From assembly GCA_021824345.1 (NCBI GenBank), contig JAKAKW010000011.1, forward strand, positions 9,074 through 73,073: a stretch of DNA of 64,000 nucleotides, in the 5' to 3' direction. The notes below the pieces were generated by a model, which saw nothing but the letters and a program-made list of their open reading frames with translations, did no database searches and was not told the DNA's origin. Position 1 is the stretch's first letter; each line of letters opens with the position of its first letter. The position numbers and the translations under genes were made by a program. Source of the stretch: a bacterium. GTDB lineage: Bacteria > Patescibacteriota > Minisyncoccia > Phycocordibacterales > UBA9973. This document shows positions 1,647 through 40,415 of the stretch, one piece after another.

Positions 1647-1771
1647 AACCGTTTTTTATAAATATGGGGTTTTCCACACGCAAATGGCGTATTTTTAATG
1701 CTTATAAAGGTATAATAAAGACTATTAATGGAAAAGAAAGACAAACAACCTGTCTAAATCAAACTATATTT

Positions 1772-4700
1772 ATGCGTAAAAAAATTTGGATAATTTTACT
1801 GGGAGTGCTTGCTGTGGCTATCGGTTCGTTTCTGCTGTACGGTAAAATCTTCGCGGCCCTGCCTCCCGGACCGTTAATCTCAATTACCACTTCCGTGCCG
1901 GCCAATGTGGACCAAGGTTCTACAGTTTATATAGGATATACCGTGGATCCGAGAGGGTATACCACCACCTGTCAATGGAACAATCTGGGCGGGAGTCAAT
2001 CAATTACAAGTATCGGCCCGTCTCTTGTCTACACGGACAACAAGATGCCACTTTATGGCTTTAGCTCTAGCAATTCAACGGCATCAATCACTTGTCAAAA
2101 TGCGCAGGGAACCAATACGCGCACTATGGCTTTTAGTGTATGGAATAAAGTTTCCTTTAACGTTATAAGTGGCGTGCAACAGTACGTCGTGCCTTCGGGA
2201 GTAAGCACAATTGGAATTGCGGTGAAAGGCGCCGGAGGCGGACAAGGGGGCGGTGAAGGCGGAAGCAATAGTTATCCGGGCGCAAATGGAGGCAAGGGCG
2301 GAGTGACCGTTCAGTTTGTGAATGTTACCGCGGGAAGCGCTATAAATATAGTTGCGGGAGGAAAGGGACATGGCGGAGGATACAACTCGGGTGGCGGGGG
2401 CGGAGGAGCATCTGCGGCTTACTATCCATCTGACGGTTCCAGCTTTAAGATAATAGCTGGCGGAGGCGGAGGGGGAGGGGCTGATGCATGGGACGGCAAC
2501 AAAATTTATGGCGGGGTAGGCGGTATGGGCGGTACTACAACCGGCGGTGGCGGAGGCGGAGGAGCCGGCAACGGAGCCGGAACCACGCTGGTTGACAACA
2601 ATTCTTATGCCCAAGGAGGAATAGCAGGAGGCGGAGGAGGAGGAAGCGGTTATTACCCCGGAGGTACCAGTAGCGCTACTGGCGGTTACGGGGGAGTAGC
2701 TATCGGAATCTTTTCGGCCGGGCAGAACGCAACCAGTTCTTCCGGATGCGGATTATATGGGAAGGGAGGCAATGGCGGAAGTTTGCTTGACGCAGCCGGA
2801 GGAGTTTGTAACAGAGCCTCTCCTACCGCGGGAGGAGACGGGCTTTATTCTGTTACGGGCAGTGCCATAACTACCAATCTCTCCAATGCGTTTTCATATG
2901 GCAGTGCCTCAAGCGGAGGAAGCGGGGGATTGCAGGTGGGAAATGACGGTTCCGACGGGGCAGTCTATATCTTTACACCTTCTCCCACCCCTCCACCGCC
3001 AGCGCCCATAATTGAACTTTCCGCGCAGAATGTGACGATGAATACGAATTCTACCGCTTATTCTAAAATAACTGCGTTGACTACAAATGTTTCTAGGCTT
3101 GATTGTTCAGTTATTGCTCTTCCAAGCTTCTTATCTTCTCCTTCTGCCGATTGTGCTCAAGTAGCCATTAAATCTGGTTCTACTGCTACAAGTCCGAATA
3201 GCCCAGCACAAGTGTCAATTCTCGCAAAAGGATATGATTTAAATGGTAATGCTATTACTAGTTCCTCATCTTGTTTAGGTACTGCTGTATGGAATGGTCA
3301 GCTCGGAGGTTGTCTAGCCACTTTTGACGTTACAGTCGTCTCCACTCCATCTTGCACTACAACATCCCAAGCTTCTAATCTAACTTCCACGTCTGCCACC
3401 GCAGGCGGAAATATTTCTGACACTGGCGGGGTTCCCATAATTAATCATGGGGTGTGTTACTCTACAAGCGTTGGCAGTATCCAGAGCAATTGTCCGTCTG
3501 ACACCTCTTCTGTCTCTACCGGCTCTTTCGCAGAGTCTTTATCTAACCTCTCTCCCGGTACTTCTTATTATTATCAAGCATTCGCCCAAAATTCCGTTGG
3601 TACTACATATTGTACCAATATGGGTTCGTTTACTACGCCACAGTCAACCTCTTATCTCCCAGATCTTACGCCCGACCCTAATTATCCCGGGGTTACGTTT
3701 CCCACTCCCGTAGTTGCCGGGAGTTCTACAACGTTTTCCCAAAGGATAACAAACATAGGCTCGGCGTCTTCCGGCCCGTTTTATACCCTTGTCCGCTTTG
3801 ACAATGACGCCAACCATGCCACATACAATACGTCTCTCTCAAAAGAAATTTTCTATCCAAATAATTTGGTCCCGACAGGCATAGCGACTATCTCCGCTTC
3901 TCAGACACTTCCCTCTGCCGGCACCTGGTATGTTCAAGCGTGCGCTGACATAAGCAACGAATCTACCATGACCGGTACGATTTCCGAATCAAATGAGGGT
4001 AATAATTGCGGGAATTGGACGCAGATCACGGTGACATCAGCTCCGGCCGTTCCCACTTGTACTTCTCCTGTTGTTACTAACATTACTGACACCTCGGCCA
4101 CCGTAGGTGGTACCATTACTTCAGACGGAGGCGCTACGATCACTTCCCGAGGAGTGGCTGTTAAAAGCAGTACCGGTTCTTATATATACACCGATTTGGG
4201 CGGAACAACAGGTCCGGTTACGAGAGATATTATCAATCTTACGCCCGGTGCTACATACTATTTCCAAGCATGGGCGAATAATAGCGTAGGGAGAGGATAT
4301 TGCCCAGAAACTTCTTTTACCGCGTTAAGAAATACCACGATCAACGGTGTTTGTGCCCCTGTCCACTATAACTGCGCCGCGGGAACAAGTAGCAGTAATG
4401 CGCTATCTTTTAGCGGTCTTAACAGTGTTTATTCATGGGGTTGTCTTGGTTCTAACGGAGGAGTTCCCGCATCCCCTTCATGTTCAGAAACATTGTCTAT
4501 GTCCGGCACTCTTACATCCGATGCCCCTTCCTGTGTAATTCAATCCGGCCAGAGCAGTTGTAATGTTACTTTGACATGGGGTACTACAAATCCTCAAGGA
4601 GTTTCCTCTGTTACGAGTCCGACAGACAGCACAGGAGCCTCGGTGTCTACTAGGGTGGGGACGGGGGATTCCGGTAGCCAGTTGGTTTCTATACCCTATC

Positions 4701-9424: not shown

Positions 9425-9444
9425 CCGCCGATTTCCAGACGGGG

Positions 9445-9473
9445 GAAGGGCGGAGGGTTACCCTCCGCCCTTC
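9445..9473. repeat. Family-A palindromic repeat (gaagggcggagggtTaccctccgcccttc, perfect 29-bp palindrome) between convergent pgk and HIT genes; likely bidirectional terminator
   Basis: Read from sequence. The same element recurs at 14454-14482 and 26628-26656. Confidence 0.7.
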
Positions 9474-9493
9474 CTTGCGATGGTTTCGGCCTG

Positions 9494-9904
9494 TCAAAGC
9501 GCTTGGCTGATCTTTTTTGCCACTTCTTTCGCTTCTCCATCGGCATAGTCTCTTCGGCCGTGCCATGGGCCGAAGCCGTCGCTTGAGAGGCGCGGTATCA
9601 CGTGCACATGAGTATGAAATATGACTTGTCCAGCCGCAGAATCGTTGTTCATGGTTACGTTTATTCCGTCCGCCTTGAGCTCTTTTTTGACTGCCATGCT
9701 GATCTTCTTTGCCGCTCGTATCAGCTTGCAAGCAATTTCCTCCGGAGTTTCATATATGTTTTTGAAATGTTCTTTGGGAATGATGAGGGTGTGTCCGATA
9801 TTTACCGGCTTAATGTCCAGAAAAGCAAGAGTATGTTCATCCTCATACACCTTTTCACTGGGTATTTCTCCCTTCACTATTTTACAAAAAATGCAGTCAT
9901 CCAT
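9494..9904 (-). CDS. HIT-family (histidine triad) nucleotide hydrolase
   Basis: Protein MDDCIFCKIVKGEIPSEKVYEDEHTLAFLDIKP...IFHTHVHVIPR contains the HxHxHxx triad. Only the 3' 411 nt of track ORF 9494..10927 is real; the rest overlaps recJ on the other strand. Confidence 0.85.
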   Translation of the reverse strand: MDDCIFCKIVKGEIPSEKVYEDEHTLAFLDIKPVNIGHTLIIPKEHFKNIYETPEEIACKLIRAAKKISMAVKKELKADGINVTMNNDSAAGQVIFHTHVHVIPRLSSDGFGPWHGRRDYADGEAKEVAKKISQAL

Positions 9905-9929
9905 GGGCAAATTATAACACATATTCCAA

Positions 9930-9959
9930 CGTGGGAGGCCTTGCCTCCCACGTTTTTTT
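9930..9959. repeat. Family-B palindromic repeat (cgtgggaggccttgcctcccacg) followed by a T-run, in the divergent HIT / recJ spacer
   Basis: 9-bp stem gtgggaggc / gcctcccac with 3-nt loop, then ttttttt; copies at 25130, 31360, 31422, 37581, 37602. Confidence 0.65.
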
Positions 9960-10018
9960 ATGTGGTCAAATAAAGGCGCGTTCAACGGATTTGCCTTATT
10001 CGTGATAAAATCAACTTT

Positions 10019-12471: not shown

Positions 12472-13761
12472 ATGAGAGAAAAAATATTTTATATAGTTTG
12501 CTTCGGATTTCTTTTAGGAACGCTCGCGCGTTCCTTTCTTTTTGTTCCCGCCCTCGCGCCGGATATTCCGGAAGGAACATTTGAGGGCATGGTGGAGGAA
12601 GAACCGGATGCCGGGGAGAATAATCAAAAACTGGTTGTGAAAACCGAAGGAATGAAAGTTCTGGTTACAACGGGGCTGGAGCAATATTTTCGTTATGGGG
12701 ACGAAGTGCGCTTGTCCGGCAAGCCTAAACTGCCGGAAAATTTTGTTACCGACCAGGGCAAGGTTTTTGATTATGTGAATTACCTTCGCAAGGATGGAAT
12801 CAGGTATGTCGTAAGCTATCCGAAAATTGAGATTCTCTCGCGAGGGCGCGGAAGTTTTTTGCGGAATGCGCTTTTCTTTGCCAAAGAAAAGTTCATGGAT
12901 GCTCTCAAAGTTTCCATCCCCAGTCCCGAATCAAAACTTTTGGGCGGACTCATCCTCGGAGACCGTTCTTCTTTCAGTTCGGATATGCGGCAACAATTTG
13001 TGGATACCGGCACTATTCATATCGTGGCTCTGTCCGGGTATAACGTGACTATCGTCGCGGAATGGATCATGAAAATATTTTCGTTTCTGCCTCGCCTGGC
13101 CGGGTTCGGGGCCGGCATCCTGGGCATCATACTTTTTGTAATCATGTCCGGCGGGACGTCCACGGCCGTGCGGGCCGGGATAATGGCGGTATTGGGCATT
13201 CTGGCCAGGGTGCTTGGCCGGCCGTATGAAGCAGGGCGGGGCCTTATTCTGGCCGCCGCGGCCATGTGCCTGGCGAACCCGCTGATCATTGCCTACGACG
13301 CGTCTTTTCAGCTGTCGTTTTTGGCCACGGCGGCCGTTATTTTCGTCCCGCCTCGCATAGAGAAGCATTTTTATTGGATTAAATGGAAATGGCTGCGTGA
13401 AATCACGGTCACCACTTCCTCCGCGTATGTTTGCGTCGCTCCATACATATTTTGGCAGATGGGCAATCTTTCCCTGGTCGCCATTCCGGCCAACCTCCTC
13501 GTTCTGCCGGCCATCCCCCTCACCATGCTCCTCGGGTTCGCCGCCGGTTTCACCGGGCTTCTTTCCCCGATTCTTTCCGCGCCCTTCGGGTATTTTTCAT
13601 ACGCGCTTCTTCATTACGAATTATGGATAATAGGCGCCATATCAAAAATCCCGTTCGCTTCCATAAGCGTCGGGGATTTTCCGCCGGTATCCATCGTTCT
13701 GATCTACGCTTTCCTTATTTTGTGGCTTCTACGAAGTTCTTTTCAATCTCCTCCCAGTTAA
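12472..13761 (+). CDS. comEC: ComEC/Rec2 DNA-uptake channel, N-terminal DUF4131 + competence (TM) domains only
   Basis: Periplasmic OB-like N-terminal region followed by the multi-TM competence domain (GTIHIVALSGYNVTIVAEW...); lacks the C-terminal lactamase domain, which is encoded separately at 14409..15353. Confidence 0.75.
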   Translation: MREKIFYIVCFGFLLGTLARSFLFVPALAPDIPEGTFEGMVEEEPDAGENNQKLVVKTEGMKVLVTTGLEQYFRYGDEVRLSGKPKLPENFVTDQGKVFDYVNYLRKDGIRYVVSYPKIEILSRGRGSFLRNALFFAKEKFMDALKVSIPSPESKLLGGLILGDRSSFSSDMRQQFVDTGTIHIVALSGYNVTIVAEWIMKIFSFLPRLAGFGAGILGIILFVIMSGGTSTAVRAGIMAVLGILARVLGRPYEAGRGLILAAAAMCLANPLIIAYDASFQLSFLATAAVIFVPPRIEKHFYWIKWKWLREITVTTSSAYVCVAPYIFWQMGNLSLVAIPANLLVLPAIPLTMLLGFAAGFTGLLSPILSAPFGYFSYALLHYELWIIGAISKIPFASISVGDFPPVSIVLIYAFLILWLLRSSFQSPPS

Positions 13762-14408: not shown

Positions 14409-15353
14409 ATGAATTCCAAAGCACTTATAAAAAATGAAAAGAAACCGCTTGCCGAAGGGCGGAGGGTAACCCTCCGCCCTTCGGCGCCCCAGAAACCCGT
14501 AAAAATTTTCCCCCTATATGCCGTTTTTGCGCTTCTAGCAATGGCTATTTTCCTGTTTTCGCTTGATTTGCGGAATTCTCGCCGAGGGCTAACTTTTGCC
14601 ATGCTTGACGTGGGCCAAGGAGACGCGCTTTTTATAGAATCTCCGACCGGCACTCGGATTCTGGTGGACGCCGGGCCTCCGCGGAAAATATTGGGACAAA
14701 TGGCAAGGGTAATGCCCGCCCTTGACCGCACTTTGGATGCGGTGATAATCACTCATCCGGATGCCGATCATATTTCCGGATTCGCGGACATTTTGGAAAA
14801 TTATAAAGTAAAAGAAATTTTTGATCCCGGCATCGCGGATGATTCCGCGCTGTATCAGAACATAAAAAAAATTGCGGAAGAAAAATCCGTGCAGAACATT
14901 CCCGCCAGGCGAGGCATGCGGTTAAATATTGGCGGCGGCGCGGTTATTGATATTTTGTTTCCCGACGCTGATGTTCGCGACTGGGAAACAAATGCAGGCT
15001 CCGTGGTGGCGCGCCTCTCTTATGGCGATACCTCCATACTGCTTGCCGGCGACTCTCCGATAGATACCGAAAAAATCATTTTGGCGCAAACACAGAGGAC
15101 GCTTCTCAAAAGTACGGCGCTGAAAGTGGGCCATCACGGTTCCAAAAATTCCAGTTCGGCCGAGTTCATTGAAGCGGTCGCGCCCAAGTATGCTCTCATT
15201 TCCGCGGGCAAAGAAAACAGATACGGCCATCCGGATCCCGCGGTACTGGACATCTTTGAAAAGTCCGGGATACAAGCGTTCCGCACGGACGAACACGGAA
15301 CCATTCTCATGCGCTCCGACGGCAAGACTGAAGCCTTTTCTTTTTATAAATAG
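14409..15353 (+). CDS. comEC: ComEC C-terminal metallo-beta-lactamase domain protein (separate ORF)
   Basis: TM helix then MLDVGQGDALFIESPTGTRILVDAGPP...IITHPDADHISG...GHHGSKNSSS: ComEC-type MBL domain. The start is uncertain: the family-A palindrome lies inside the first 25 codons, so the true start is probably downstream, e.g. the ATG at 14541. Confidence 0.7.
   Translation: MNSKALIKNEKKPLAEGRRVTLRPSAPQKPVKIFPLYAVFALLAMAIFLFSLDLRNSRRGLTFAMLDVGQGDALFIESPTGTRILVDAGPPRKILGQMARVMPALDRTLDAVIITHPDADHISGFADILENYKVKEIFDPGIADDSALYQNIKKIAEEKSVQNIPARRGMRLNIGGGAVIDILFPDADVRDWETNAGSVVARLSYGDTSILLAGDSPIDTEKIILAQTQRTLLKSTALKVGHHGSKNSSSAEFIEAVAPKYALISAGKENRYGHPDPAVLDIFEKSGIQAFRTDEHGTILMRSDGKTEAFSFYK
14454..14482. 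repeat. Family-A palindromic repeat copy (gaagggcggagggtAaccctccgcccttc)
   Basis: Identical to 9445-9473 apart from the central base; lies 45 nt inside the track ORF starting at 14409. Confidence 0.7.
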
Positions 15354-15361
15354 CACTATTA

Positions 15362-15479
15362 AGCAAAACTTCCGGTACTCTCTTCGGAGGGGGTTTGGCG
15401 AGCGGCGGCGAGCCAACTTCAGGGATTTTTAAGCTTCAAAAATCCCGTACCCGGAGAGGAGAGTACCGGAAGTTTTGCT
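15362..15479. repeat. Structured intergenic element: 21-bp perfect inverted repeats flanking an inner hairpin
   Basis: agcaaaacttccggtactctc (15362-82) and gagagtaccggaagttttgct (15459-79) are perfect inverted repeats about 76 nt apart. The spacer contains the hairpin gggatttttaagcttcaaaaatccc (15422-46). Located between the comEC-lactamase stop and the glyA start. Confidence 0.6.
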
Positions 15480-22398: not shown

Positions 22399-25300
22399 AT
22401 GGCTTCCGGTGAAGAATCTAAAAAATCCGAATCTGCTCGGCGCGAAGAGCGGATTTTGGAGTTCTGGAAGGAGAATAAAATTTTTGAAAAAACTCTGGGA
22501 AAGCCGTCCCCCAAGGGGGAATTCGTTTTCTACGAAGGTCCGCCTACGGCCAATGGCAAACCTCACATAGGGCACTTTGAGGCGCGTTCTTTCAAGGATG
22601 CCGTTCCCAGGTACAAGACCATGCGCGGATACCATGTGCGTCGGAAAGGCGGATGGGACACCCACGGCCTGCCTGTGGAGCTTGCGGTGGAGAAAAAACT
22701 CGGGCTTAGTTCCAAAAAGGGGATAGAGGAATACGGAATTGCCAAGTTCAACGAGCAATGCAAGGAAAGCGTATGGGAATATGTGAACCTATGGGAAAAG
22801 TTCACCGAGCGCGTGGGATACTGGGTGGATCAGAAGGATGCCTACGTCACTTACCATAACGATTACATTGAATCTCTTTGGAATATCGTAAAAAAAATAG
22901 ATGAACAAGAACTGCTTTACAAGGATTACAAAGTGGTTCCGTGGTGTCCGCGCTGCGGGACGGCCCTTTCCTCGCACGAATTGGCGCAGGGATATGAGGA
23001 TGTGAAGGATCTGTCGGTGTATGTGAAATTCCGCGTGAAATCTTCGCCTGACGCTTTTGCGAAGGTCCTCGGTTCCCCTCGCACAAAGCTTGCTCCTTCG
23101 GAGCTGGAAGCTCGGCCAGACCATTCGCAAAAGCATTCAGTCGAGGATTTCACATATATTCTGGCATGGACCACTACCCCCTGGACTTTGCCGGGCAACG
23201 TTGCTTTAGCGGTAGGAAAAGATATTGATTACACCGCTTTGCGCGTAAAAGGGGTTTCCGAATTGTATATTCTCGCAAGCGATAGGGTAAAGAGTGTCTT
23301 TGAAGGGCAGGAAATTGAAATTGTGCATGACAACATAAAAGGATCAGATCTTGTCGGCCTGGAATACGAACCCTTGTATCCGTATTTCGCGAACACTCTT
23401 CCTGAGAGCGAAAAGTCCAAACTTCCAAAAGCATACAAGGTTTACGAAGCGGATTTTGTGACAACCGTTGACGGCACGGGCGTGGTGCATACCGCCGTGA
23501 TGTACGGACAAGACGACTTCGTGCTGGGCACCGCTATCGGTTTGCCCAAGCACCATCTCGTGGGTCTGGACGGGAAATTCCTGGCCGGCACTGATTTTCT
23601 TGAAGGAAGATTCGTGCGAGACGAAGATGTGGCAGTGGACATTATCAAAGACCTTGCGCACCGGAACCTTTTGCTAAAGAAAGAAAAGTACGAACACTCA
23701 TATCCTTTCTGCTGGCGCTGCCATACCGCGCTCATATATTACGCGCGGGACTCGTGGTACATAAAAGTTTCAGATCCGCGGATTAAGGAAAAGATGATTT
23801 CTGAGAATGAGAAGATAAACTGGGAGCCGGCGCACATTCGGGACGGGCGTTTCGGAGAATGGCTGCGCGATATCAAGGACTGGGCGATTTCCCGCGAGCG
23901 GTACTGGGGAACTCCGCTTCCGGTGTGGACATGCGAGAAATGCAACCAGAGGATTACCATCGGAAGCATTGAGGAACTGAAAAAGCATACGAAGAAATCC
24001 GGCAATCGGTACTTCTTTATGCGGCATGGAGAAGCAGAGAGCAATGTTAAGGGTATGGTGGCTTGCAGAGTGGAGGATAACGATAATTTAATCGAGGCCG
24101 GGAAACAACAAGTATTGTCTTCGGCAAAACAACTAAAAGAAAAGAATATTGATCTTATTTTCTCCTCGGATATTTTGAGGACGAAAGAGACAGCTGAAAT
24201 TGTTAAAAAAGAAATTAGTACTGAAAAAGAAATAATTTTTGACAAGCGCCTGCGCGAGTGGAACGTAGGAAAATTTGACGGAAAAACATGGCACGAATAT
24301 AAAAAATTTGCGCGCCAACACGATGATTGGTACAGTTTTATCCCTGAGGGAGGCGAATCATTCAAAGATATAAAGATTAGAGTTTTTGATTTCATTTACG
24401 AATTGGAGAATAAATACCAAGGGAAAAATATCTTGATCGTCACTCACCAGGCTCCGATTGTAGTTATTCTTAAGGGTTTAGATAAACTTAATGATGAAGA
24501 TACAAAGGCAGGTGATAGCGATGTGAACTTAAGATTCAAGGGAGGAGAGTTTAAAGAGATAGATTTTACCTTACTTCCCCACAACAAAAACTACGAGCTG
24601 GATTTGCACCGGCCATACATAGACGAGGTTCCGCTGGTCTGCGATTGCGGAGGAAAACTTTCTCGTACACCGGAGGTTATGGACGTCTGGTTTGATTCCG
24701 GTTCCATGCCGTTTGCCCAGGATCATTATCCTTTTGAGAACAAAGACTGGATTGACGATCACGGATATCCGGCTGATTTCATATCGGAGGCCATAGATCA
24801 GACTCGCGGATGGTTCTATACCCTGCACGCCGTGGGAGCGCTTGTGGGGAAGGGCAGGGCATACAAAAATGTAATCTGTCTCGGACACCTGATGGATGCC
24901 GAGGGAAAGAAAATGTCAAAACATATCGGCAACGTAGTGGACCCCTGGGAGATGATAGAGAAATACGGGGCGGATACTTTGCGATTATGGATGTACTCCA
25001 TAAACCAGCCGGGCGAGTCCAAGAATTTTGATGAAAAAACGGTGGTGCTTCTCCACCGGCAAATGTTCGGTCTGCTTTACAATGTGCTTTCTTTCTACGA
25101 GCTTTACCGCGACAAAGAGCTTGAGACGATGGGAGGCAAGGCCTCCCACCGGCCTGCCTCGGAAAATATTCTGGATAAGTGGATAATTACGCGATTAAAC
25201 GAGCTGGAGATTCTGTGCACGGAAAATCTTGAGAAATATAAATTATTGGAACCCGTGCGGGCCATGCGCGATTTCATCGACGATCTGTCCACTTGGTATT

Positions 25301-26016
25301 TGCGCCGATCCAGGGAGCGCATTAAGGACGGGGACAAGGATGCCAAGCGCACTTTGTACTTTGTGTTGAAAAATCTTGCCAAGCTTCTGGCCCCGTTCGC
25401 TCCTTTTGCCACCGAGGATATATGGCAAAAGCTTAAAAGCGATGAGGACCCTGCAAGCGTTCATTTGTCCGAGTGGCCGTACAAGGACCAATCCCTTTTG
25501 CAAAAGCTTTTCGGAAAGAAAGAAAAAGTGGATTACTCAGTGCTGGAAAATATGCGCCGAGCCAGGCAGATTGTGACAATGGGCTTGGAAGCTCGGCAGA
25601 AAGCGGGCATAAAGGTGCGCCAACCGCTCGGACTTTTGAGGATAAAGGATCGGAATCTTTCATCGGAGTATGAAGAGCTCATCAAGGACGAGCTCAATGT
25701 TAAAGAAATTGCCAAAGATGCCGGCCTAGAAGGAGAAGTGTTGCTTAATACTGAAATTACTCCTGAACTTAAAGAAGAAGGCGACTATCGCGAACTGGTT
25801 CGCGCTATTCAGGATATGCGCAAAGAGGCGGGGCTCTTACCGAGCGACATGGTAACGCTTCTTTTGGATACTGATGAATCTGGCGAAAAGCTGGCCAAAA
25901 AATTTGAAGAAGATCTGAAGAAAACTGTTAGCGCCGAAAAAATTGAATTCACGGAAAGCGACGGTCCGGAAATCAAAATCGGCAATTCAGCGTTTAAGAT
26001 AAAAATTCAAAAATAG
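22399..26016 (+). CDS. ileS: Isoleucine--tRNA ligase (type 2) carrying three insertions
   Basis: HIGH (PTANGKPHIGH), CP1 editing (WTTTPWTLPGN), KMSKS (KMSKHIGN). 1205 aa is about 150-200 aa longer than typical type-2 IleS. Insertions at 23062-23128, 24001-24570 and 25130-25148 are annotated separately. Confidence 0.9.
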   Translation: MASGEESKKSESARREERILEFWKENKIFEKTLGKPSPKGEFVFYEGPPTANGKPHIGHFEARSFKDAVPRYKTMRGYHVRRKGGWDTHGLPVELAVEKKLGLSSKKGIEEYGIAKFNEQCKESVWEYVNLWEKFTERVGYWVDQKDAYVTYHNDYIESLWNIVKKIDEQELLYKDYKVVPWCPRCGTALSSHELAQGYEDVKDLSVYVKFRVKSSPDAFAKVLGSPRTKLAPSELEARPDHSQKHSVEDFTYILAWTTTPWTLPGNVALAVGKDIDYTALRVKGVSELYILASDRVKSVFEGQEIEIVHDNIKGSDLVGLEYEPLYPYFANTLPESEKSKLPKAYKVYEADFVTTVDGTGVVHTAVMYGQDDFVLGTAIGLPKHHLVGLDGKFLAGTDFLEGRFVRDEDVAVDIIKDLAHRNLLLKKEKYEHSYPFCWRCHTALIYYARDSWYIKVSDPRIKEKMISENEKINWEPAHIRDGRFGEWLRDIKDWAISRERYWGTPLPVWTCEKCNQRITIGSIEELKKHTKKSGNRYFFMRHGEAESNVKGMVACRVEDNDNLIEAGKQQVLSSAKQLKEKNIDLIFSSDILRTKETAEIVKKEISTEKEIIFDKRLREWNVGKFDGKTWHEYKKFARQHDDWYSFIPEGGESFKDIKIRVFDFIYELENKYQGKNILIVTHQAPIVVILKGLDKLNDEDTKAGDSDVNLRFKGGEFKEIDFTLLPHNKNYELDLHRPYIDEVPLVCDCGGKLSRTPEVMDVWFDSGSMPFAQDHYPFENKDWIDDHGYPADFISEAIDQTRGWFYTLHAVGALVGKGRAYKNVICLGHLMDAEGKKMSKHIGNVVDPWEMIEKYGADTLRLWMYSINQPGESKNFDEKTVVLLHRQMFGLLYNVLSFYELYRDKELETMGGKASHRPASENILDKWIITRLNELEILCTENLEKYKLLEPVRAMRDFIDDLSTWYLRRSRERIKDGDKDAKRTLYFVLKNLAKLLAPFAPFATEDIWQKLKSDEDPASVHLSEWPYKDQSLLQKLFGKKEKVDYSVLENMRRARQIVTMGLEARQKAGIKVRQPLGLLRIKDRNLSSEYEELIKDELNVKEIAKDAGLEGEVLLNTEITPELKEEGDYRELVRAIQDMRKEAGLLPSDMVTLLLDTDESGEKLAKKFEEDLKKTVSAEKIEFTESDGPEIKIGNSAFKIKIQK
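23062..23128 (+). repeat. About 66-nt repeat element inserted in-frame in ileS (encodes roughly AKVLGSPRTKLAPSELEARPDHSQ); second copy at 36154-36215
   Basis: aggtcctcggttcccctcgc...agctggaagctcggccagaccat has a 23-nt identical core and about 75-80% identity over 70 nt with the tatD-rpsF spacer copy. From a remembered T. thermophilus IleS alignment, this IleS has about 28 extra residues between VKFRVK and WTTTPWTLPGN. Confidence 0.65.
24001..24570 (+). other. Inserted histidine-phosphatase (phosphoglycerate-mutase-like) domain within ileS
   Basis: FFMRHGEAESN (RHG catalytic motif), IFSSDILRTKETAEIV, DKRLREWNVG, IPEGGES, IVTHQAPI match the PhoE/GpmB-type histidine phosphatase fold. The insert lies between the conserved PVWTCEKC...ELKKH and DLHRPYIDEV...VMDVWFDSG IleS segments and is AT-richer than the flanking ileS sequence. 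Confidence 0.7.
25130..25148. repeat. Family-B palindrome copy (tgggaggcaaggcctccca) in-frame inside ileS, encoding GGKASH
   Basis: Exact match to the intergenic family-B element (31422-31440); translates as MGGKASH within a variable IleS linker. Confidence 0.6.
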
Positions 26017-26602: not shown

Positions 26603-26627
26603 TTCGACGTGGCAGGTCGGAATTTTT

Positions 26628-26656
26628 CCAGGGCGGAGGGTTACCCTCCGCCCTAG
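26628..26656. repeat. Family-A palindromic repeat copy (core gggcggagggttaccctccgccc)
   Basis: Same core as 9445 and 14454; outer arms slightly degenerate. Sits after the NUDIX gene and before a TATAAT-containing promoter region for the next gene. Confidence 0.65.
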
Positions 26657-26717
26657 ACAGCATTGTATATTTATAGCAGTGAAATTTTTAATATTTTCGG
26701 TGGTATAATATAGTGAT

Positions 26718-27362
26718 ATGAAAATCACAAAGCTTGGGCATTGTTGCCTCATTATTGAAGAAAACGGAAAGAGGATTATGACTGATCCGGGTTCTTTTAC
26801 CGCGGAAGAGCAGAAGAAAGAGAAAGATATCGATGTCATTCTTTTTACCCACGAGCACGGCGACCACTACCACCTTGAATCGCTGAAGGAAATTCTGAAG
26901 AACAGTCCGAATGCGAAAATAATCACAAATGCCGGCGTGGGGAAGCTTCTGGACGAAGCCGGCATAAAGTATGAAATCATGCCGGACAAAACTTCCAAGG
27001 AAGTTTTGTCCGGCATAGAACTGGAAGCGCATGACTGCAAGCATGGGGAAATTTTTGAAGAATACGGCCAGGTGCCGAACACCGGCTTCTTTATCGGCAA
27101 GCGCCTATTTTATCCTGGAGACTCATATTACAATCCCGGCAAGCCAGTGGAAATCCTTGCGCTTCCCGTGGCCGGCCCGTGGGCGAAGGTGGCGGACTTT
27201 ATGCGCTATGCATTGGATGTAAAACCGAAAGTATGTTGTCCGGTGCATGATGGCATGCTGGGAAAATATTCCGGGCTTGCGTATTGGGTGCCAGAAAAAG
27301 TGCTTCCTGAGAATGGGATTTCTTTCAAGATTCTTGAAAAAGGCAAAACGGAGGAATTTTAG
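26718..27362 (+). CDS. MBL-fold metal-dependent hydrolase
   Basis: HEHGDHYH (HxHxDH) motif and UPF0173-like layout. Confidence 0.8.
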   Translation: MKITKLGHCCLIIEENGKRIMTDPGSFTAEEQKKEKDIDVILFTHEHGDHYHLESLKEILKNSPNAKIITNAGVGKLLDEAGIKYEIMPDKTSKEVLSGIELEAHDCKHGEIFEEYGQVPNTGFFIGKRLFYPGDSYYNPGKPVEILALPVAGPWAKVADFMRYALDVKPKVCCPVHDGMLGKYSGLAYWVPEKVLPENGISFKILEKGKTEEF

Positions 27363-29983: not shown

Positions 29984-31327
29984 ATGAGCAAAGAAAAAAA
30001 ATCGGAAGAGAACAATTTGATGGAAAAAATCGTGTCGCTCTCTAAGCGGCGGGGGTTCATTTTCCAAGGATCGGAAATATACGGAGGCTTGGCCGGCACC
30101 TGGGATTACGGCCCCTTGGGACTGGCCCTGAAGAAAAATATAGAAAGCCTGTGGTGGAACCGCTTTGTGGATTCGCGGGAGGATATGTACGGCATCGACT
30201 CCGCGATACTGATGAATCCGCGAGTGTGGGAGGCGAGCGGGCATGTGTCCGGTTTTTCCGATCCTCTGGTGCAGTGTGAAAAATGCAAGCGCCGTTTCCG
30301 GGCGGATCATTTGGAAAACGCTTCAAAATGCCCGGATTGCGGAGGAAAACTCGGGGAACCCAGGCAATTCAATATGATGTTCAGAACCTCCGTCGGTTCG
30401 GTGGACGGTTCGGATATGGCGGTATATTTGCGTCCGGAAACGGCGCAGGGAATGTTCGTGAATTTCAAAAATATTATTGATTCATATCATCCCAGAATGC
30501 CTTTCGGCATAGCCCAAATCGGCCGGGCTTTTCGGAACGAAATCGCTCCCCGCGATTTTATCTTCCGGGTAAGAGAGTTGGAAATCATGGAATTTGAATA
30601 TTTTGTTCGGGAAGATGAGTGGAAGGGCATTTTTGAGTATTGGCGCAAAGAAATGCTTTCCTGGTTTTTATCGCTCGGTTTTGAAGAAAGCGACATAAAG
30701 GAAGTGGAAATACCGGAGGAAGATCGAGCGCACTATTCCAAGCGCACCGTAGATTTTCATTTCAATTTCCCCCATAAATTTGATGAAATTGCCGGCCTCG
30801 CTTATCGCACCGGTTTCGATCTGGAGAACCACATCAGGGAGAGCGGATCGGATTTGTCGTATTTGGATCCGGTGTCCGGCGAAAGATTCGTCCCTCACGC
30901 GCTTGAGCCCACTTTCGGCCTCGGCCGGCATCTTTTGGCCGTTCTATCCAAGGCTTATACCGAAGACAATCTCGGCGGAGAAACAAGAGTTTTTCTAAAA
31001 TTCCCCGCAAGGCTGGCACCGATCAAAGCGGCCGTGTTTCCTTTGCTCAAAAACAAGCCGGAATTGGTAAAAAAAGCGAGAGATATATATGAGACCCTGA
31101 AGAAAGAAGTGCCTCAGACTGAATTTGACGACAACGGCAACATCGGCAAGCGCTATCGCCGGCAGGATGAAATCGGCACTCCCTGGTGCATTGTGGCGGA
31201 TTTCGACACCTTGGAAGACGACACGGTTACAGTTCGCGACAGGGATACCGGAAAACAGGAGAGGATGAAAATTGCGGAACTGTCCGGATATATTAAAGAA
31301 AAGCTGGCGGCAGGAAGTTTGCGATAG
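29984..31327 (+). CDS. glyQS: Glycine--tRNA ligase (alpha2 dimeric type)
   Basis: RRGFIFQGSEIYGGLAGTWDYGPLG..., class II motifs, insertion domain with the C..C pair. Confidence 0.9.
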   Translation: MSKEKKSEENNLMEKIVSLSKRRGFIFQGSEIYGGLAGTWDYGPLGLALKKNIESLWWNRFVDSREDMYGIDSAILMNPRVWEASGHVSGFSDPLVQCEKCKRRFRADHLENASKCPDCGGKLGEPRQFNMMFRTSVGSVDGSDMAVYLRPETAQGMFVNFKNIIDSYHPRMPFGIAQIGRAFRNEIAPRDFIFRVRELEIMEFEYFVREDEWKGIFEYWRKEMLSWFLSLGFEESDIKEVEIPEEDRAHYSKRTVDFHFNFPHKFDEIAGLAYRTGFDLENHIRESGSDLSYLDPVSGERFVPHALEPTFGLGRHLLAVLSKAYTEDNLGGETRVFLKFPARLAPIKAAVFPLLKNKPELVKKARDIYETLKKEVPQTEFDDNGNIGKRYRRQDEIGTPWCIVADFDTLEDDTVTVRDRDTGKQERMKIAELSGYIKEKLAAGSLR

Positions 31328-31352
31328 GAAAACAGCGGGTGCACGGCAGCAG

Positions 31353-31446
31353 CGGGAGAGTGGGAGGCCTTGCCTCCCACTTTTTAATATGTGTCCTGCC
31401 AGGCCACGACTTCTAGGAGTGGGAGGCAAGGCCTCCCACTCTCCCG
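31353..31446. repeat. Pair of family-B palindromes in inverted orientation with extended 28-bp arms, flanking a 37-nt spacer
   Basis: cgggagagtgggaggccttgcctcccac (31353-80) ... agtgggaggcaaggcctcccactctcccg (31418-46); MITE-like or nested-hairpin architecture between glyQS and the M16 peptidase gene. Confidence 0.65.
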
Positions 31447-31487
31447 CCGGGCTTCCTACAAGCTTTTGATTATGGTATGTTTTATGG

Positions 31488-32756
31488 ATGAAAATCTCCA
31501 AGAAAATTCTTTCCAACGGCCTTCGGGTGGTGGCCATACCGATGAAAGACAATCCGACTGTTACCGTGCTGGTGCTGGTGGAAGCGGGATCCAAGTACGA
31601 ACCCGCCCGGCAGAACGGCATCTCCCATTTTTTGGAGCATATGTGCTGGAAAGGCACCCTGAAGCGTCCGGGGTCCGTGGATATTTCCCGGGAACTGGAC
31701 GAGCTCGGCAGTTCATACAACGCTTTTACTTCCCACGAATTCACCGGATACTACGCCAAGTCCGACGGCCGGCACTTCCGGAAAATTTTTGAATTGCTGT
31801 CGGATATTTATCTGCACCCTGTTTTTCCTGAAGCGGAAATAGAGAAGGAAAAAGGAGTGATCATGGAGGAAATGAACATGTACCGCGATATTCCGCAGCG
31901 GCACATTGACGATCTGTTTATGAAGCTTCTTTACGGGCCTTCTCCGGCCGGGCGAGGCATCTTAGGCTCCCGGGAGAGCGTTTCCGGGCTCAAACAAAGA
32001 GATCTTTTGCGCTATCACTCCATGCATTATCTGCCGGAATCCACCGTAATTGCGGTGGCGGGAAAAGTTTCCGAGAGGGAAGTGATGGAAGAAGCGAGGA
32101 AGATATTCGGGAATGTGAAGCGCGGAAGAAAGGCCGGCAAGCCGAAGGTGCGGGAAAGCCAGAAAAAACCCGCCGTTTTGATTGAATACAAAAAAACCGA
32201 CCAGGCGCATTTCATGCTCGGAGTCAGAACTTACAGCATGTTTGACAAGCGGTCGCCGGCTCTTGCCCTTCTTTCCTCGGTGCTTACCGGAGGAATGAGT
32301 TCCCGCTTGTTTATAAAATTGAGAGAAGAAATGGGAGCGGGATACTACGTGCGTTCCGACAATGATACTTTTACCGACCACGGATTCTTCCAGATTTCCG
32401 CCGGAGTGGACAAGAAGAGGATAAAAGAAGCGCTTCGGGCGGTGCTGGCCGAATGCCGGAAGCTGGCGGAAAAAGAAGTTTCCAAAAGGGAACTGGACAA
32501 GGCGAAAGAGATCTTGATAAGCGGAATGAAATTCTCTCTGGAATCCAGCGACGACATCGCCGATTTTTACGGAGGACAGGAAGTGCTAAAAAGGAAGATG
32601 GTTTCTTCCGAAGAGAAAGCCAGAAGGATCAGGGCCGTCACTCCCGCCCTGCTTCGCAAAACAGCCGAGGAAATTTTCAAAGACGGGAGCCTGAATCTGG
32701 CCCTGATCGGCCCTTTCCGGCAGAAGGGAGAATTTTTGAAAATGCTCAAATTCTGA
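31488..32756 (+). CDS. M16-family zinc peptidase (pitrilysin/insulinase-like)
   Basis: HFLEHMCWKGT inverted zinc-binding HxxEH motif with the downstream E. Confidence 0.85.
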   Translation: MKISKKILSNGLRVVAIPMKDNPTVTVLVLVEAGSKYEPARQNGISHFLEHMCWKGTLKRPGSVDISRELDELGSSYNAFTSHEFTGYYAKSDGRHFRKIFELLSDIYLHPVFPEAEIEKEKGVIMEEMNMYRDIPQRHIDDLFMKLLYGPSPAGRGILGSRESVSGLKQRDLLRYHSMHYLPESTVIAVAGKVSEREVMEEARKIFGNVKRGRKAGKPKVRESQKKPAVLIEYKKTDQAHFMLGVRTYSMFDKRSPALALLSSVLTGGMSSRLFIKLREEMGAGYYVRSDNDTFTDHGFFQISAGVDKKRIKEALRAVLAECRKLAEKEVSKRELDKAKEILISGMKFSLESSDDIADFYGGQEVLKRKMVSSEEKARRIRAVTPALLRKTAEEIFKDGSLNLALIGPFRQKGEFLKMLKF

Positions 32757-36123: not shown

Positions 36124-36127
36124 AAGG

Positions 36128-36241
36128 GCCGGGGAACGCACAGGAGTTCTGCTAGGTCCTCGTTCTCCTCGCTTTAGGTCCGCTTCTACGAAGCTGGAAG
36201 CTCGGCCAGACCATCGCAGAGCTCCTGTGCGTTCCCCGGCC
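36128..36241. repeat. MITE/RPE-like element: 26-bp inverted repeats flanking a 62-nt core shared with ileS
   Basis: ggccggggaacgcacaggagttctgc (36128-53) pairs with gcagagctcctgtgcgttccccggcc (36216-41) with one mismatch. The core 36154-36215 matches ileS 23062-23128. Confidence 0.65.
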
Positions 36242-37556: not shown

Positions 37557-37578
37557 CGAATTTTATAAGTTTTAATGA

Positions 37579-37630
37579 AGGTGGGAGGCCTTGCCTCCCT
37601 AAAGGAGGCAAGGCCTCCCACCTTTTCTTT
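37579..37630 (+). terminator. Terminator of the rpsF-ssb-rpsR operon built from two abutting family-B palindromes
   Basis: ggtgggaggccttgcctccc taaa ggaggcaaggcctcccacc followed by ttttctttat. Confidence 0.7.
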
Positions 37631-37635
37631 ATATT

Positions 37636-38208
37636 ATGCTTGCATACAACGAAATTCGGGAAAAGAAAATAATCATTTACAACGGAGAACCATGCGAAGT
37701 GGTGGATTCCCATGTGGCCCGCACCCAGCAAAGGAAGCCCCAGAACCAGGTGAAATTAAAAAGCCTGATTTCCGGCAAGACCATAGCCGCCACTTTCCAT
37801 GTATCGGACTCCGCGGATGAGGCGGAAATAGACCGGAAGGAAGTAAAATTTTTATACCAAAACCGCGGGGAGTATTGGTTCTGCGAACCAAGCGATCCCA
37901 GCAAGCGCTTCAAGCTCGATGATTCTCTGATCGGCGCGTCGGGAAAATTCCTGAAGGCGAACGAGAATGTTTCCGTCATGGTATGGGACGACGAGGGAGA
38001 AGAAAAAACCATCAAGCTGGATCTGCCCATCAAAATGGAATTCAAGGTAAAAACGGCTCCTCCCGCGGTAAAAGGCAACACCGCCCAGGGCGGAAGCAAA
38101 GTAATCACTCTTGAAAACGGCACTACCATTAACGCTCCGATGTTCATCAGCGAAGGGGATACCATCCGGGTAAATACCGAGACGGGGGAATACGTGGAGC
38201 GAGCGTAA
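37636..38208 (+). CDS. efp: Elongation factor P
   Basis: 190 aa with three OB/KOW-like domains; ...KPQNQVKLKSL..GKT... region and overall EF-P length. Confidence 0.85.
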   Translation: MLAYNEIREKKIIIYNGEPCEVVDSHVARTQQRKPQNQVKLKSLISGKTIAATFHVSDSADEAEIDRKEVKFLYQNRGEYWFCEPSDPSKRFKLDDSLIGASGKFLKANENVSVMVWDDEGEEKTIKLDLPIKMEFKVKTAPPAVKGNTAQGGSKVITLENGTTINAPMFISEGDTIRVNTETGEYVERA

Positions 38209-38213
38209 TATTC

Positions 38214-40415
38214 TTAACCGCCCGCCTGTTCCGAGAACTTTTTTCGGATATCCTTCAAAATCTGGCCCGCGATTTTCGGATTTTCTTTCAAAAATGTCCG
38301 AGTGGAATCGTAGCCCCGTCCGAGCTTCACTTCCTCTTCGCCATCCGGCTTGCCCGCCTGCCCGGTTGGCTTGTATGAATACGAACTGCCGGACTTTTCC
38401 AAGATCTTAAACTTTTCTCCGAGGGCGATGAGTTCGCCTTCTTTGGAGATGCCTTCGTTATAAATGATGTCGAATTCCGTCTGCTTGAACGGCGCGGCTA
38501 CTTTGTTTTTTACCACTTTCACTCGTGTTCGCGATCCCACCACTTCTTCTCCTTTCTTTATTTGGGCGATGCGCCGGATGTCCATTCGAACACTTGTGTA
38601 AAACTTAAGAGCCTTGCCTCCGGGCGTTGTTTCCGGCGAGTTGCTGACCAGGCAGCCATCCGCAAAATAATTGTGGTTATCAGCGACGCTTATATCAAAT
38701 CTTTGCCGGCTTATCCTCTGGCCATCATGGTACGGCGTACGGGTTCTGATTTCTTTTATTATCATCGGGCGCAATATCTGGCTTTGCTTTGATTGTTGAG
38801 GATCCGTCTGATGATAGCGCCCGCGGTATTTTTCAGGAAGCTTGTATTCCATGGACTTAGGAACGAAAGGGGATATCAGTTCAAAGAATTTATCCGACTC
38901 TGCGGCACTAAAACCCAGCACTTGATATTCTCCGCATTTCCTCCATTTGGGCGCAATATCATAGCGGGCGAATATCCGGTTGATTCTGTCAACGCTCTCC
39001 GGCTGATTTCCGAAGGCGTTGGCGTACAGCCCGGCTCTCGGCCGCCGCGCGTACCATTTTCCTTTCCATTCTGAAAGTCCGGTCTGCATTGTTCCGTCTC
39101 CGCAGTACCATAAAGCTATCATGCGAGGAGTAATTTGCTCCACCAAAAACTCCGGCACGATCTTTTTTTGTTGCGGATAAAACAGTCCGTGTAGGTCTCC
39201 GATGCGCAGAAGATGTTTGGTTTCCACAATGGCATTTCCCCTAGAATTTTCCATTACGACATTGCTGGCGATATCGCCCAATTCCTCTGCGAGCCATGAC
39301 ACGTATTGGGATTGTTCTGCTCCATGTTCCTCCCTGAAATATGCGGTTTGTTCGTTAAATTTCTTAATGTTTCCATCTCCCAGCAAAGAGCCGATGATAA
39401 TCTCCTCTTGTTCCGGGGAGAGGTCTATATTATTTATATTCACTGATATCTCATCTCCGGCTTTCAGTTCCTTGGCCTTTTTCCAGCCAGCCGGCGTATA
39501 TATTTTGTGGTCGGGAGTGCAGGAAAATCCTCTTCGTCCGTTTCCCGTATGGTTTTGAACAAAAAACTGCAAGAATGAATCCGTTTCTCCGTTTATGTGC
39601 CAGTCAGTTATGAACTTTGCTTCTACGCATTTCTTTTCAAAATTATAAGAAAGCACCTTCACTTTTTTAGTTTGATTGACAATTTTCCCGATTTTTTCTT
39701 TCGTTCCGTCGGCCAGCAGCACTTTCGTATCGTAGGAAAAACATCCGAACATCACCCCGATCTGCATTCTGATTTGGTTTATGAAAATCACTACGGTCTT
39801 GCTTCGCGCCACGATTGCCGTGAGCTTGCGCAGAGCTTGGGACATAAGCCGGGCCTGCTTGCCCACATGATATGCTCCCATATCTCCCTCGATTTCATCT
39901 TTTGGAGTAAGGGCTGCCACCGAGTCCACCACCACCACGTCAATCTTGCCGGTGCGCACAAGCGATTCCACTATTTCCAGCGCCTGTTCTCCGGTATCCG
40001 GCTGGGAAATCAGGAGTTCGTTTATGTTGACGCCGAGACGTTTGGAATATTCCGGATCCATGGCATGCTCCGCGTCAATGTACGCGCATATTCCGCCTTT
40101 CTTTTGCGCCTCCGCCACTATATGCAGGGACAGGGTAGTCTTCCCGCTGGACTCCGGGCCGAAAATTTCGATAATCCTTCCGCGGGGAATGCCTCCGACC
40201 CCCAAGGCCATATCCAGGCCGATTGAGCCCGTGGGTATTACGTTCACATCCACCTTCGGGGTATCCCCGAATTTCATAATAGTGCCTTCGCCAAACTTGG
40301 TCTGCAGGGCTTTCAGGGTGTCTTCCAATCCTGAAGCGTTTCCGCCTTTTCCGGCGGAACCCTTTTTTTCTTCACTTATTTCCTTCTGGGGGTCGGTTTT
40401 TGTTTTTTTAGGCAT
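38214..40415 (-). CDS. recA: Recombinase RecA interrupted by a 368-aa intein
   Basis: N-extein has Walker [10 protein letters not shown] and ...[11 protein letters not shown]-extein resumes [23 protein letters not shown].... Between them is a Cys1...VSN intein with LAGLIDADG motifs. Confidence 0.9.
38640..39743 (-). mobile_element. RecA intein with LAGLIDADG homing-endonuclease domain
   Basis: Starts [14 protein letters not shown] (block A, Cys1), ends [11 protein letters not shown]|S (terminal Asn, +1 Ser). Internal [11 protein letters not shown] and [18 protein letters not shown] motifs. 1104 nt = 368 codons, in frame, at the MFG|SPETT site. Confidence 0.85.

Follow-up and report, generated by a model that had tools for sequence, protein, structure and literature searches.

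In the 64-kb stretch of DNA that was analysed (the window), the gene for class II glycyl-tRNA synthetase, glyQS (29984-31327, plus strand, stop codon TAG at 31325-31327), identified from gene calls and the Pfam domains tRNA-synt_2b and HGTP_anticodon, is followed on the same strand by the gene for an M16 family peptidase (31488-32756; Pfam Peptidase_M16 and Peptidase_M16_C). The 160-nt spacer between the two genes contains an element of 96 bp in total (31352-31447), which is composed of two 30-nt arms, 31352-31381 and 31418-31447, that are 100% complementary and lie 36 nt apart, and which was the longest inverted repeat found in the window by an inverted-repeat search. The left arm, on the plus strand, begins 24 nt past the glyQS stop (31327) and consists of an 8-nt flank, GCGGGAGA, a palindrome at 31360-31380 with the loop CTT, and one T. 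The left hairpin (-23.1 kcal/mol) begins 32 nt past the same stop and is directly followed by a run of five T residues (31381-31385), and the two together are shaped like an intrinsic terminator of glyQS. The right arm, on the minus strand, is an inverted copy of the left one with the loop AAG on the plus strand; it is followed by a T-run on neither strand, and 40 nt separate its end from the start codon of the M16 gene. The 36-nt spacer (31382-31417) is predicted to fold into a small hairpin of its own (GUGU.CCU...AGG.CCAC), and its first 13 nt, comprising the T-run and ATGTG, resemble the 3' flank of a further copy of the palindrome at 9931. When the 121 nt from 31340 to 31460 were folded as RNA, a single 33-bp stem was obtained with a free energy of -85.9 kcal/mol (z = -9.6 compared to shuffles), and folding as DNA gave -46.1 kcal/mol (z = -9.0). 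The perfect 30-nt arms and the spacer hairpin agree with the nested hairpin that a preliminary description of this DNA had proposed for the glyQS-M16 pair. The inverted pair itself also stands, but its dimensions, put at 28-bp arms and a 37-nt spacer, had to be adjusted, since the perfect arms measure 30 nt and the gap 36 nt (arms of 28 nt would leave a gap of 38 nt). A consensus scan found no sigma-70 promoter in the spacer, and the number of promoter-like sites equals the shuffle expectation.

The palindrome present in both arms belongs to a family, here named family B, of GC-rich 21-base palindromes of the form GTGGGAGGC-ctt/aag-GCCTCCCAC, which are scattered through a small Patescibacteria genome. 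The unit of 21 nt comprises a 9-bp stem and an asymmetric 3-nt loop, with a predicted RNA folding energy of -22 to -23 kcal/mol, and across the family-B loci the hairpin energies range from -22 to -48 kcal/mol. The pattern GTGGGAGGCNNNGCCTCCCAC matches the window exactly at 9931-9951, 31360-31380 and 31419-31439, with one mismatch at 25129-25149, and with two mismatches at 37581-37601, whereas 100 dinucleotide-preserving shuffles gave no match. Similarly, the 9-mer GTGGGAGGC occurs 10 times in the 64-kb window versus 0.41 times expected. For a wider view, the window was joined with both 10-kb extensions to an 81.5-kb composite, covering approximately 10% of the genome, and here the most frequent 12-mers and 16-mers were all family B (7 occurrences, against a shuffle maximum of 3), followed in rank by the k-mers of another palindrome family, family A, which has the form GGGCGGAGGG-tta-CCCTCCGCCC. 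The palindromes had been described as copies of one repeat, and these counts show that the family is not a product of chance; the copy coordinates proposed for it are generally right, except that the fourth copy is located at 31419-31439 and not at 31422-31442, a shift of 3 nt.

An abundant 9-mer, paired in terminator-like hairpins, in a genome that encodes ComEC (12472-13761) might be a DNA uptake sequence, i.e., a self-DNA tag for the competence machinery. Uptake tags are often arranged as inverted pairs in terminators, as in Neisseria, yet they are 9- to 12-mers that occur approximately once per kb, mostly solitary and with many in genes. The density found here is ~0.16 per kb, and nine of the ten half-sites are part of palindromic pairs with a fixed 3-nt loop, the lone solitary one being located at 30226, which makes this explanation extremely unlikely.

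The other family-B loci differ in their surroundings. The singlet at 9928-9954 (plus strand) has a 12-bp stem followed by seven T residues on the plus strand (-22.3 kcal/mol), and is flanked by two divergent genes, HIT on the minus strand (9494-9904) and recJ on the plus strand (from 10019). This T-run has no co-directional gene upstream, so that the implication of the preliminary description that the 9931 copy follows a gene does not hold. The copy in ileS (25129-25149, plus strand) agrees with the pattern in 20 of the 21 bases and is read in frame as codons 911-917 (MGGKASH), confirming that the repeat is also found inside a coding sequence, as had been claimed; it lies in a variable linker, at which the window protein is 5 amino acids longer than its orthologues. 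Between rpsR and efp, two copies are fused head-to-head (37578-37624, plus strand) into what the inverted-repeat search returned as a perfect palindrome with 21-bp arms (37578-37598 and 37604-37624) and a 5-nt loop, followed by CTTTTCTTT (-47.9 kcal/mol). This fused doublet is situated 21 nt past the rpsR stop (37556) and 11 nt before the efp start (37636). One extra copy was found ~3.2 kb upstream of the window, in minus orientation after an H+-pyrophosphatase gene (5120-5140 of contig L116), and reads GCGGGAGA-GTGGGAGGC-AAG-GCCTCCCAC-TTTTTT (-35.3 kcal/mol). In total, six of the seven family-B units are intergenic and one lies in ileS, and the 81.5 kb contain just two doublets, the spacings of which are very different (36-38 nt versus ~0).

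A few further observations concern the fused doublet. A public contig, L113 (ENA ERZ27237554 k141_440810), ends inside this palindrome at the position equivalent to 37595 of the window, which suggests that the rpsR doublet breaks assemblies, and family-B palindromes may do so in general. The adjoining efp gene (37636-38208) is encoded on the plus strand here, whereas L120, L121 and L122 (see below), the three relatives that have efp, encode it on the minus strand, and the fused doublet is positioned exactly at the rpsR|efp junction. An inversion of efp by recombination between REP-type repeats (see below) was considered and is unsupported, since the other end of efp carries no second copy and lies just 5 nt from the recA stop codon.

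Similarity between the units is not restricted to the palindrome. The segment 31351-31385 aligns with the pyrophosphatase copy over 35 nt with 91% identity (E = 6e-6), sharing GCGGGAGA, the core and the T-run, the only difference being the flipped loop, and the flank, palindrome and T-run of the left arm recur together at L116 5112-5148 on the minus strand. Likewise, 31360-31393 aligns with 9931-9964 over 34 nt with 91% identity (E = 2e-5), and this includes the T-run and ATGTG. At the level of sequence, the identical cores and the common flanks beyond the palindrome establish that the family-B units are copies of one another. Because of these common flanks, of the copies placed in the divergent promoter region and within a coding sequence, and of the right arm lacking a T-run, we regard family B as a dispersed repeat family and not merely as a set of convergent terminators. 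The 9-3-9 palindromes could also be operators to which a dimeric protein binds; the glyQS-M16 spacer would then contain a pair of sites, 59 bp from one another, and the divergent promoter region of HIT and recJ a single one, and both the perfect dyad symmetry and the latter position would suit such a function. This is improbable, however, considering that the flanks are conserved and asymmetric, that T-runs adjoin the units, that copies are placed after stop codons and in a coding sequence, that the inner half-sites of the fused doublet are truncated, and that no regulator gene adjoins any of the copies.

Several of the copies may serve as terminators. A hairpin with a T-run is located 3' of a co-directional gene at three loci, following glyQS (U5), the pyrophosphatase gene (U6) and rpsR (CUUUUCUUU), and we consider it probable, judging from their sequence, that these three terminate transcription. 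As in canonical intrinsic terminators, the left arm, the rpsR doublet and the pyrophosphatase copy present a GC stem-loop and a T-run soon after the stop codon, a form that the right arm, which has no T-run, does not show. Canonical terminators differ in that they are normally unique sequences, as they are in the relatives, whereas family B reuses one sequence with common flanks and is also present where there is nothing to terminate. In a consensus terminator scan, the rpsR doublet was the top terminator-like site, in line with the earlier suggestion that the fused pair is a terminator, a role for which it has the predicted form. The left hairpin of glyQS was absent from the list, perhaps because G-U and A-U pairs let its stem run into the T-run and caused the scanner to miss it. 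Taken together, rpsR, glyQS-M16 and ileS provide the terminator-like, intergenic-structured and coding placements that had been attributed to this one repeat.

Repetitive extragenic palindromes (REPs), known from Pseudomonas and E. coli, carry a conserved GT(A/G)G head at their 5' end, and GTGG is the 5' end of every family-B unit except the ileS copy, which begins with ATGG on the plus strand. Under the definition of Bertels & Rainey (2011; PMC3337134, PMC3116915), REPs and REPINs (REP doublets that form a hairpin) are extragenic, over-represented, imperfect palindromes of short length, arranged as inverted doublets with a hairpin-forming spacer; a central TT/AA orients each unit, and adjacent T-runs have been read as termination co-option. 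Family B resembles them in several respects: its units have the size of a REP (~20-40 nt) and form an imperfect, GC-rich palindrome that is asymmetric just by the central TT/AA; its k-mers rank as the most over-represented within the 81.5 kb, compared with shuffles as well as with six relatives; the units are mostly extragenic; they occur as singlets and as inverted doublets arranged TT-AA; and T-runs adjoin them. In the glyQS-M16 element, two REP-like units of the same group are inverted around a short spacer and are predicted to form a hairpin, which is the REPIN arrangement, and by the same measure the fused doublet is a second example. The 16-mer of the GI REPs of Pseudomonas fluorescens SBW25 is GTGGGAGGGGGCTTGC, the GI and GII 16-mers of this species begin with GTG, and the GI doublet spacings on record are 34-36 and 41-43 nt (PMC3337134). 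Family B (GTGGGAGGCCTTGCC...) has the same first eight bases as the P. fluorescens GI REPs, including the GTGGGAGG head, and the same CTTGC centre. It differs from the SBW25 REPs in having a stem that is 3 bp shorter per arm and in its Patescibacteria host, and from the SBW25 system as a whole in that its 81.5 kb contain no RAYT, only 7 units and 2 doublets, one copy in a coding sequence, and no evidence of excision. We therefore consider it likely that family B is a lineage-specific dispersed repeat of the REP type, with 31352-31447 being an inverted doublet of REPIN architecture, and that the family has in part been co-opted as terminators. Family B is in this sense genuine and of a rather ordinary type, and it is the host that is unusual.

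Other searches for the identity of family B gave no hits of relevance. The family-B region had no match in Rfam 15 at the gathering score, relaxing the threshold to E <= 1 gave just spurious matches to animal miRNA hairpins, the tRNA/tmRNA scan found none, and BLAST searches of plasmid and phage collections returned nothing meaningful for family B.

The glyQS-M16 element had been called MITE-like, and its perfect 30-nt inverted termini around a short non-coding core, 96 bp in all, do fit an insertion sequence shortened by deletion, in which the palindrome would by coincidence form part of the 30-bp terminal inverted repeats and which a DDE transposase would have moved. The relatives also vary downstream of glyQS, and one of them carries an rve integrase fragment and a retroelement at this site. 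However, the flanks, ...GGCAGCA and CGGGCTT..., share no direct target-site duplication, a self-comparison of the 81.5 kb showed that the full-length 96-nt unit is single-copy with just its arms recurring, neither an insertion sequence with such termini nor a transposase was found in these 81.5 kb, and plasmid and phage collections contained no match. Moreover, the units are mostly single, which is typical of REPs. This makes a classical MITE very unlikely, and REP/REPIN the better comparison.

REPIN doublets recur across a genome at characteristic spacings and are better conserved than singlets, and REPINs have a cognate, single-copy RAYT gene (a Y1/HUH transposase) with the same REPs on its flanks. 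None of the called genes of the 81.5 kb encodes a RAYT or Y1 transposase, and tblastn, a search of low sensitivity in which an E. coli YafM sequence was used as query, found no RAYT either. The source of the window is a group of clonal Patescibacteria MAGs. Strain-level contigs, located by exact-protein look-ups, were compared from GCA_027428375.1 (DAICBP010000002.1), GCA_021842645.1, GCA_027428315.1, ENA ERZ27237554 and one Logan assembly; contigs from four assemblies were 99.99-100% identical to the window, and no insertion or excision polymorphism was seen among them. Because no RAYT, target-site duplication or strain polymorphism was found, and because all strain-level contigs are identical, the mobility of family B is something that we infer.

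In six more distant, syntenic relatives (L120-L125, ~100 kb in total, 77-80% GlyRS identity), a search that tolerated up to 4 mismatches detected neither A-like nor B-like copies, and their few strong GC hairpins are not repeated. In L123, the closest relative with the glyQS-M16 pair, the spacer between these genes is 48 nt long and AT-rich, compared to 160 nt in the window. The rpsR operon of L120 and L121 ends in ordinary, unique terminators (A-tract, GC stem and T-tract), and because the relatives clearly use intrinsic terminators, it is likely that family B has been co-opted in the form of predicted terminators. The nearest relatives are distant, so the absence of family B from them does not date a gain. 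The preliminary description had reasoned that a lack of presence/absence variation among relatives combined with strict terminator placement would favour a purely regulatory role. Neither was observed, as the six relatives are devoid of the family and some of the placements are not those of terminators. The 3' junction of glyQS is a variable spot across the clade. In L125 (8301-11437), glyQS is directly followed by an rve integrase fragment and by a pair of genes resembling a diversity-generating retroelement (bAvd and reverse transcriptase), and the M16 gene is missing from the glyQS-AI-2E interval in L121, L122, L124 and L125.

A different origin has to be weighed for the doublets, namely that template switching during replication (snap-back) produced an inverted duplicate of one terminator hairpin located after glyQS, that the rpsR pair arose likewise, and that such errors or gene conversion spread the sequence, which was kept for termination, with neither a transposase nor a mobile unit. 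The fused doublet is a contiguous perfect palindrome with a 5-nt loop, as snap-back would give, the 81.5 kb contain no recognised transposase, and the window has many unusually long perfect palindromes (I2, I3 and I6). An informative case is a third repeat family, family C, of which a 67-nt core in the long hairpin I2 (36127-36241, in the TatD|rpsF intergenic region) is 81% identical to 23063-23129 in ileS (E = 1e-7). Both copies lie in long hairpins (z = -9.0 and -6.3), the basal stems of which (~26-35 bp) are unrelated. Compared with four orthologues, the ileS site (23035-23153) is a 27-amino-acid in-frame insertion in IleRS. In the alignment, its 3' arm corresponds to ancestral coding sequence, of which the other arm resembles an inverted copy, and therefore arms can be generated locally, in the case of family C probably by template switching. 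The ileS insertion, an inverted copy of the adjoining coding sequence joined to an I2-like core, thus suggests a local formation of arms, which could also be behind the contiguous rpsR doublet. This fits the glyQS element less well, since its arms are 36 nt apart and separated by mostly non-complementary sequence, which a simple fold-back does not give, and it leaves the dispersal between distant loci unexplained, i.e., identical units with common flanks at loci 3-35 kb apart, as well as the copy in ileS. A purely local origin of the family is therefore a rather unlikely explanation.

Assuming that family B is a REP-type dispersed family, its units would spread in a copy-and-paste manner acting on the hairpin form of single-stranded DNA, like REPs and REPINs with their Y1/HUH transposase (RAYT), or, with the same outcome, replication could switch templates at the hairpins. 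Several of the copies would have been co-opted, the left unit and its U5 stopping the transcription of glyQS, and the copies after the H+-pyrophosphatase gene and rpsR acting likewise. Any transcript reading through the glyQS terminator would fold into a perfect duplex of 30-33 bp, which would form a strong 3' barrier and likely be a substrate for a double-strand RNase.

Sequences related to family B were also found elsewhere. Among the matches listed, the exact 21-mer is present in a P. fluorescens genome, where this singlet is flanked by two coding regions that appear to be convergent. A metagenome scan for the exact 21-mer gave 1 match, the flanks of which are those of Serratia loci from the genome scan. 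In JBAYJV01, a distant Paceibacterota MAG that is rich in AT, the same 9-bp stem was found in at least 16 exact copies within ten 8-kb blocks, with a different loop and ATAT flanks, and those that were checked are all located between ORFs. In this MAG (L026, L063 and L087), some of the GTGGGAGGC hairpins have a partner of a second type, ATCGGAGGC-tna-GCCTCCGAT, at a distance of 50-70 nt, which is a BIME-like two-type arrangement.

Patescibacteria/CPR genomes are ~1 Mb in size, densely packed and believed to contain little mobile DNA, and, to our knowledge, studies of REP/REPIN systems have been confined almost entirely to Proteobacteria. A full-text literature search found no description of REPs, REPINs or RAYTs in Patescibacteria/CPR. 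It is conceivable, but we hold it to be a doubtful extension of the REP reading, that family B is a REPIN-like replicator population in an ultra-small Patescibacteria genome, which has the head GTGGGAGG in common with the Pseudomonas GI REPs and with a distant Paceibacterota, which supplies many terminator hairpins and settles in frame in essential genes (ileS), and which has as partner either an unrecognised HUH enzyme or none, with hairpin-driven template switching. If it were a true REPIN population, these episymbionts would carry long-lived intragenomic replicators that shape operon boundaries and even protein loops, and if the genome has no RAYT, family B would be a test case for the transposase-independent spread of palindromes.

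Comparable palindromic elements are known from other bacteria. The REPs and BIMEs of E. coli reportedly act as transcription attenuators and as stabilisers of mRNA 3' ends (Higgins; Gilson; Ton-Hoang 2012). They resemble family B in being extragenic palindromes that are found alone or as inverted pairs after genes, and differ from it in their GTAG head outside the stem, their bulged stems and their sequence. BIMEs, moreover, have defined linker motifs and IHF or gyrase sites. Correia elements of Neisseria are transcribed into long hairpins that are cut by RNase III, and can provide terminators or promoters. These ~100-bp intergenic elements have inverted ends of ~26-30 bp, which is similar to the glyQS-M16 element. 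They also duplicate a TA target and exist in hundreds of full-length copies, and neither was seen for family B. Rickettsia palindromic elements can reportedly (Ogata 2000) be located in frame inside essential genes, as families B and C are in ileS, but are 100-150 bp long, compared to 21 nt for the ileS copy of family B, a candidate insertion.

A separate arrangement was noticed in ~23 of the listed matches, from gut Clostridia, Desulfovibrio, Roseomonas and Hyphomicrobiales (e.g., L013, L021, L023, L037, L041, L048, L057, L067, L095 and L106), which share a composite of ~75 nt. Its order is GGGGGAGAcG, GTGGGAGGC-nnn-GCCTCCCAC, (A/G)CCC(A/T)CCGCC, a second hairpin (AAAGGG..CCCTTTGG) and AATCCC. 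The composite directly follows a stop codon in several loci, and in several others a second inverted hairpin pair is located 110-300 nt away. Its 5' flank resembles the GCGGGAGA flank of the window, and the reverse complement of its linker, GGCGGAGGGT, is identical to the arm of family A. In Rfam, the composite loci had no match.

Family A itself, GGGCGGAGGG-tta/taa-CCCTCCGCCC, is present in the window at 9444-9474, 14451-14485 and 26627-26657, in each case with no T-run, and outside the window at L116 7267-7291, with an imperfect copy at approximately L116 5190-5212. One copy is located between the convergent genes pgk and HIT and another within the part of a Lactamase_B gene that encodes the N-terminal region (LAEGRRVTLRPSA), whereas the imperfect copy lies after the pyrophosphatase gene, 45 nt upstream of the family-B copy. 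Of the long palindromes, I3 (15362-15479; z = -8.9 when folded as RNA) lies upstream of SHMT, its 24-nt arms enclosing a structured core of 70 nt, and I6 (26979-27016) is a 38-nt perfect palindrome inside a gene with a metallo-beta-lactamase fold; neither has a match in Rfam. The idea that I3 was inserted into a CCGG-centred palindrome with target duplication was dropped, as the I6 palindrome does not contain CAAAACTTCCGG. Features of several proteins of the window were noted as well. IleRS (22399-26016) carries a histidine-phosphatase domain (PF00300), inserted at residues 539-699 in its catalytic domain, and this insertion is kept in all five relatives whose ileS was compared. RecA (38214-40415, minus strand) is 733 amino acids long and includes an intein that has a LAGLIDADG endonuclease domain, and the one complete copy in a relative, that of L121, has 320 amino acids and no intein. 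Finally, 1664-7399 encodes a 1911-amino-acid protein with internal DNA repeats of ~330-350 nt and faint fn3/CARDB Pfam matches, which adjoins a gene with a Por secretion tail.
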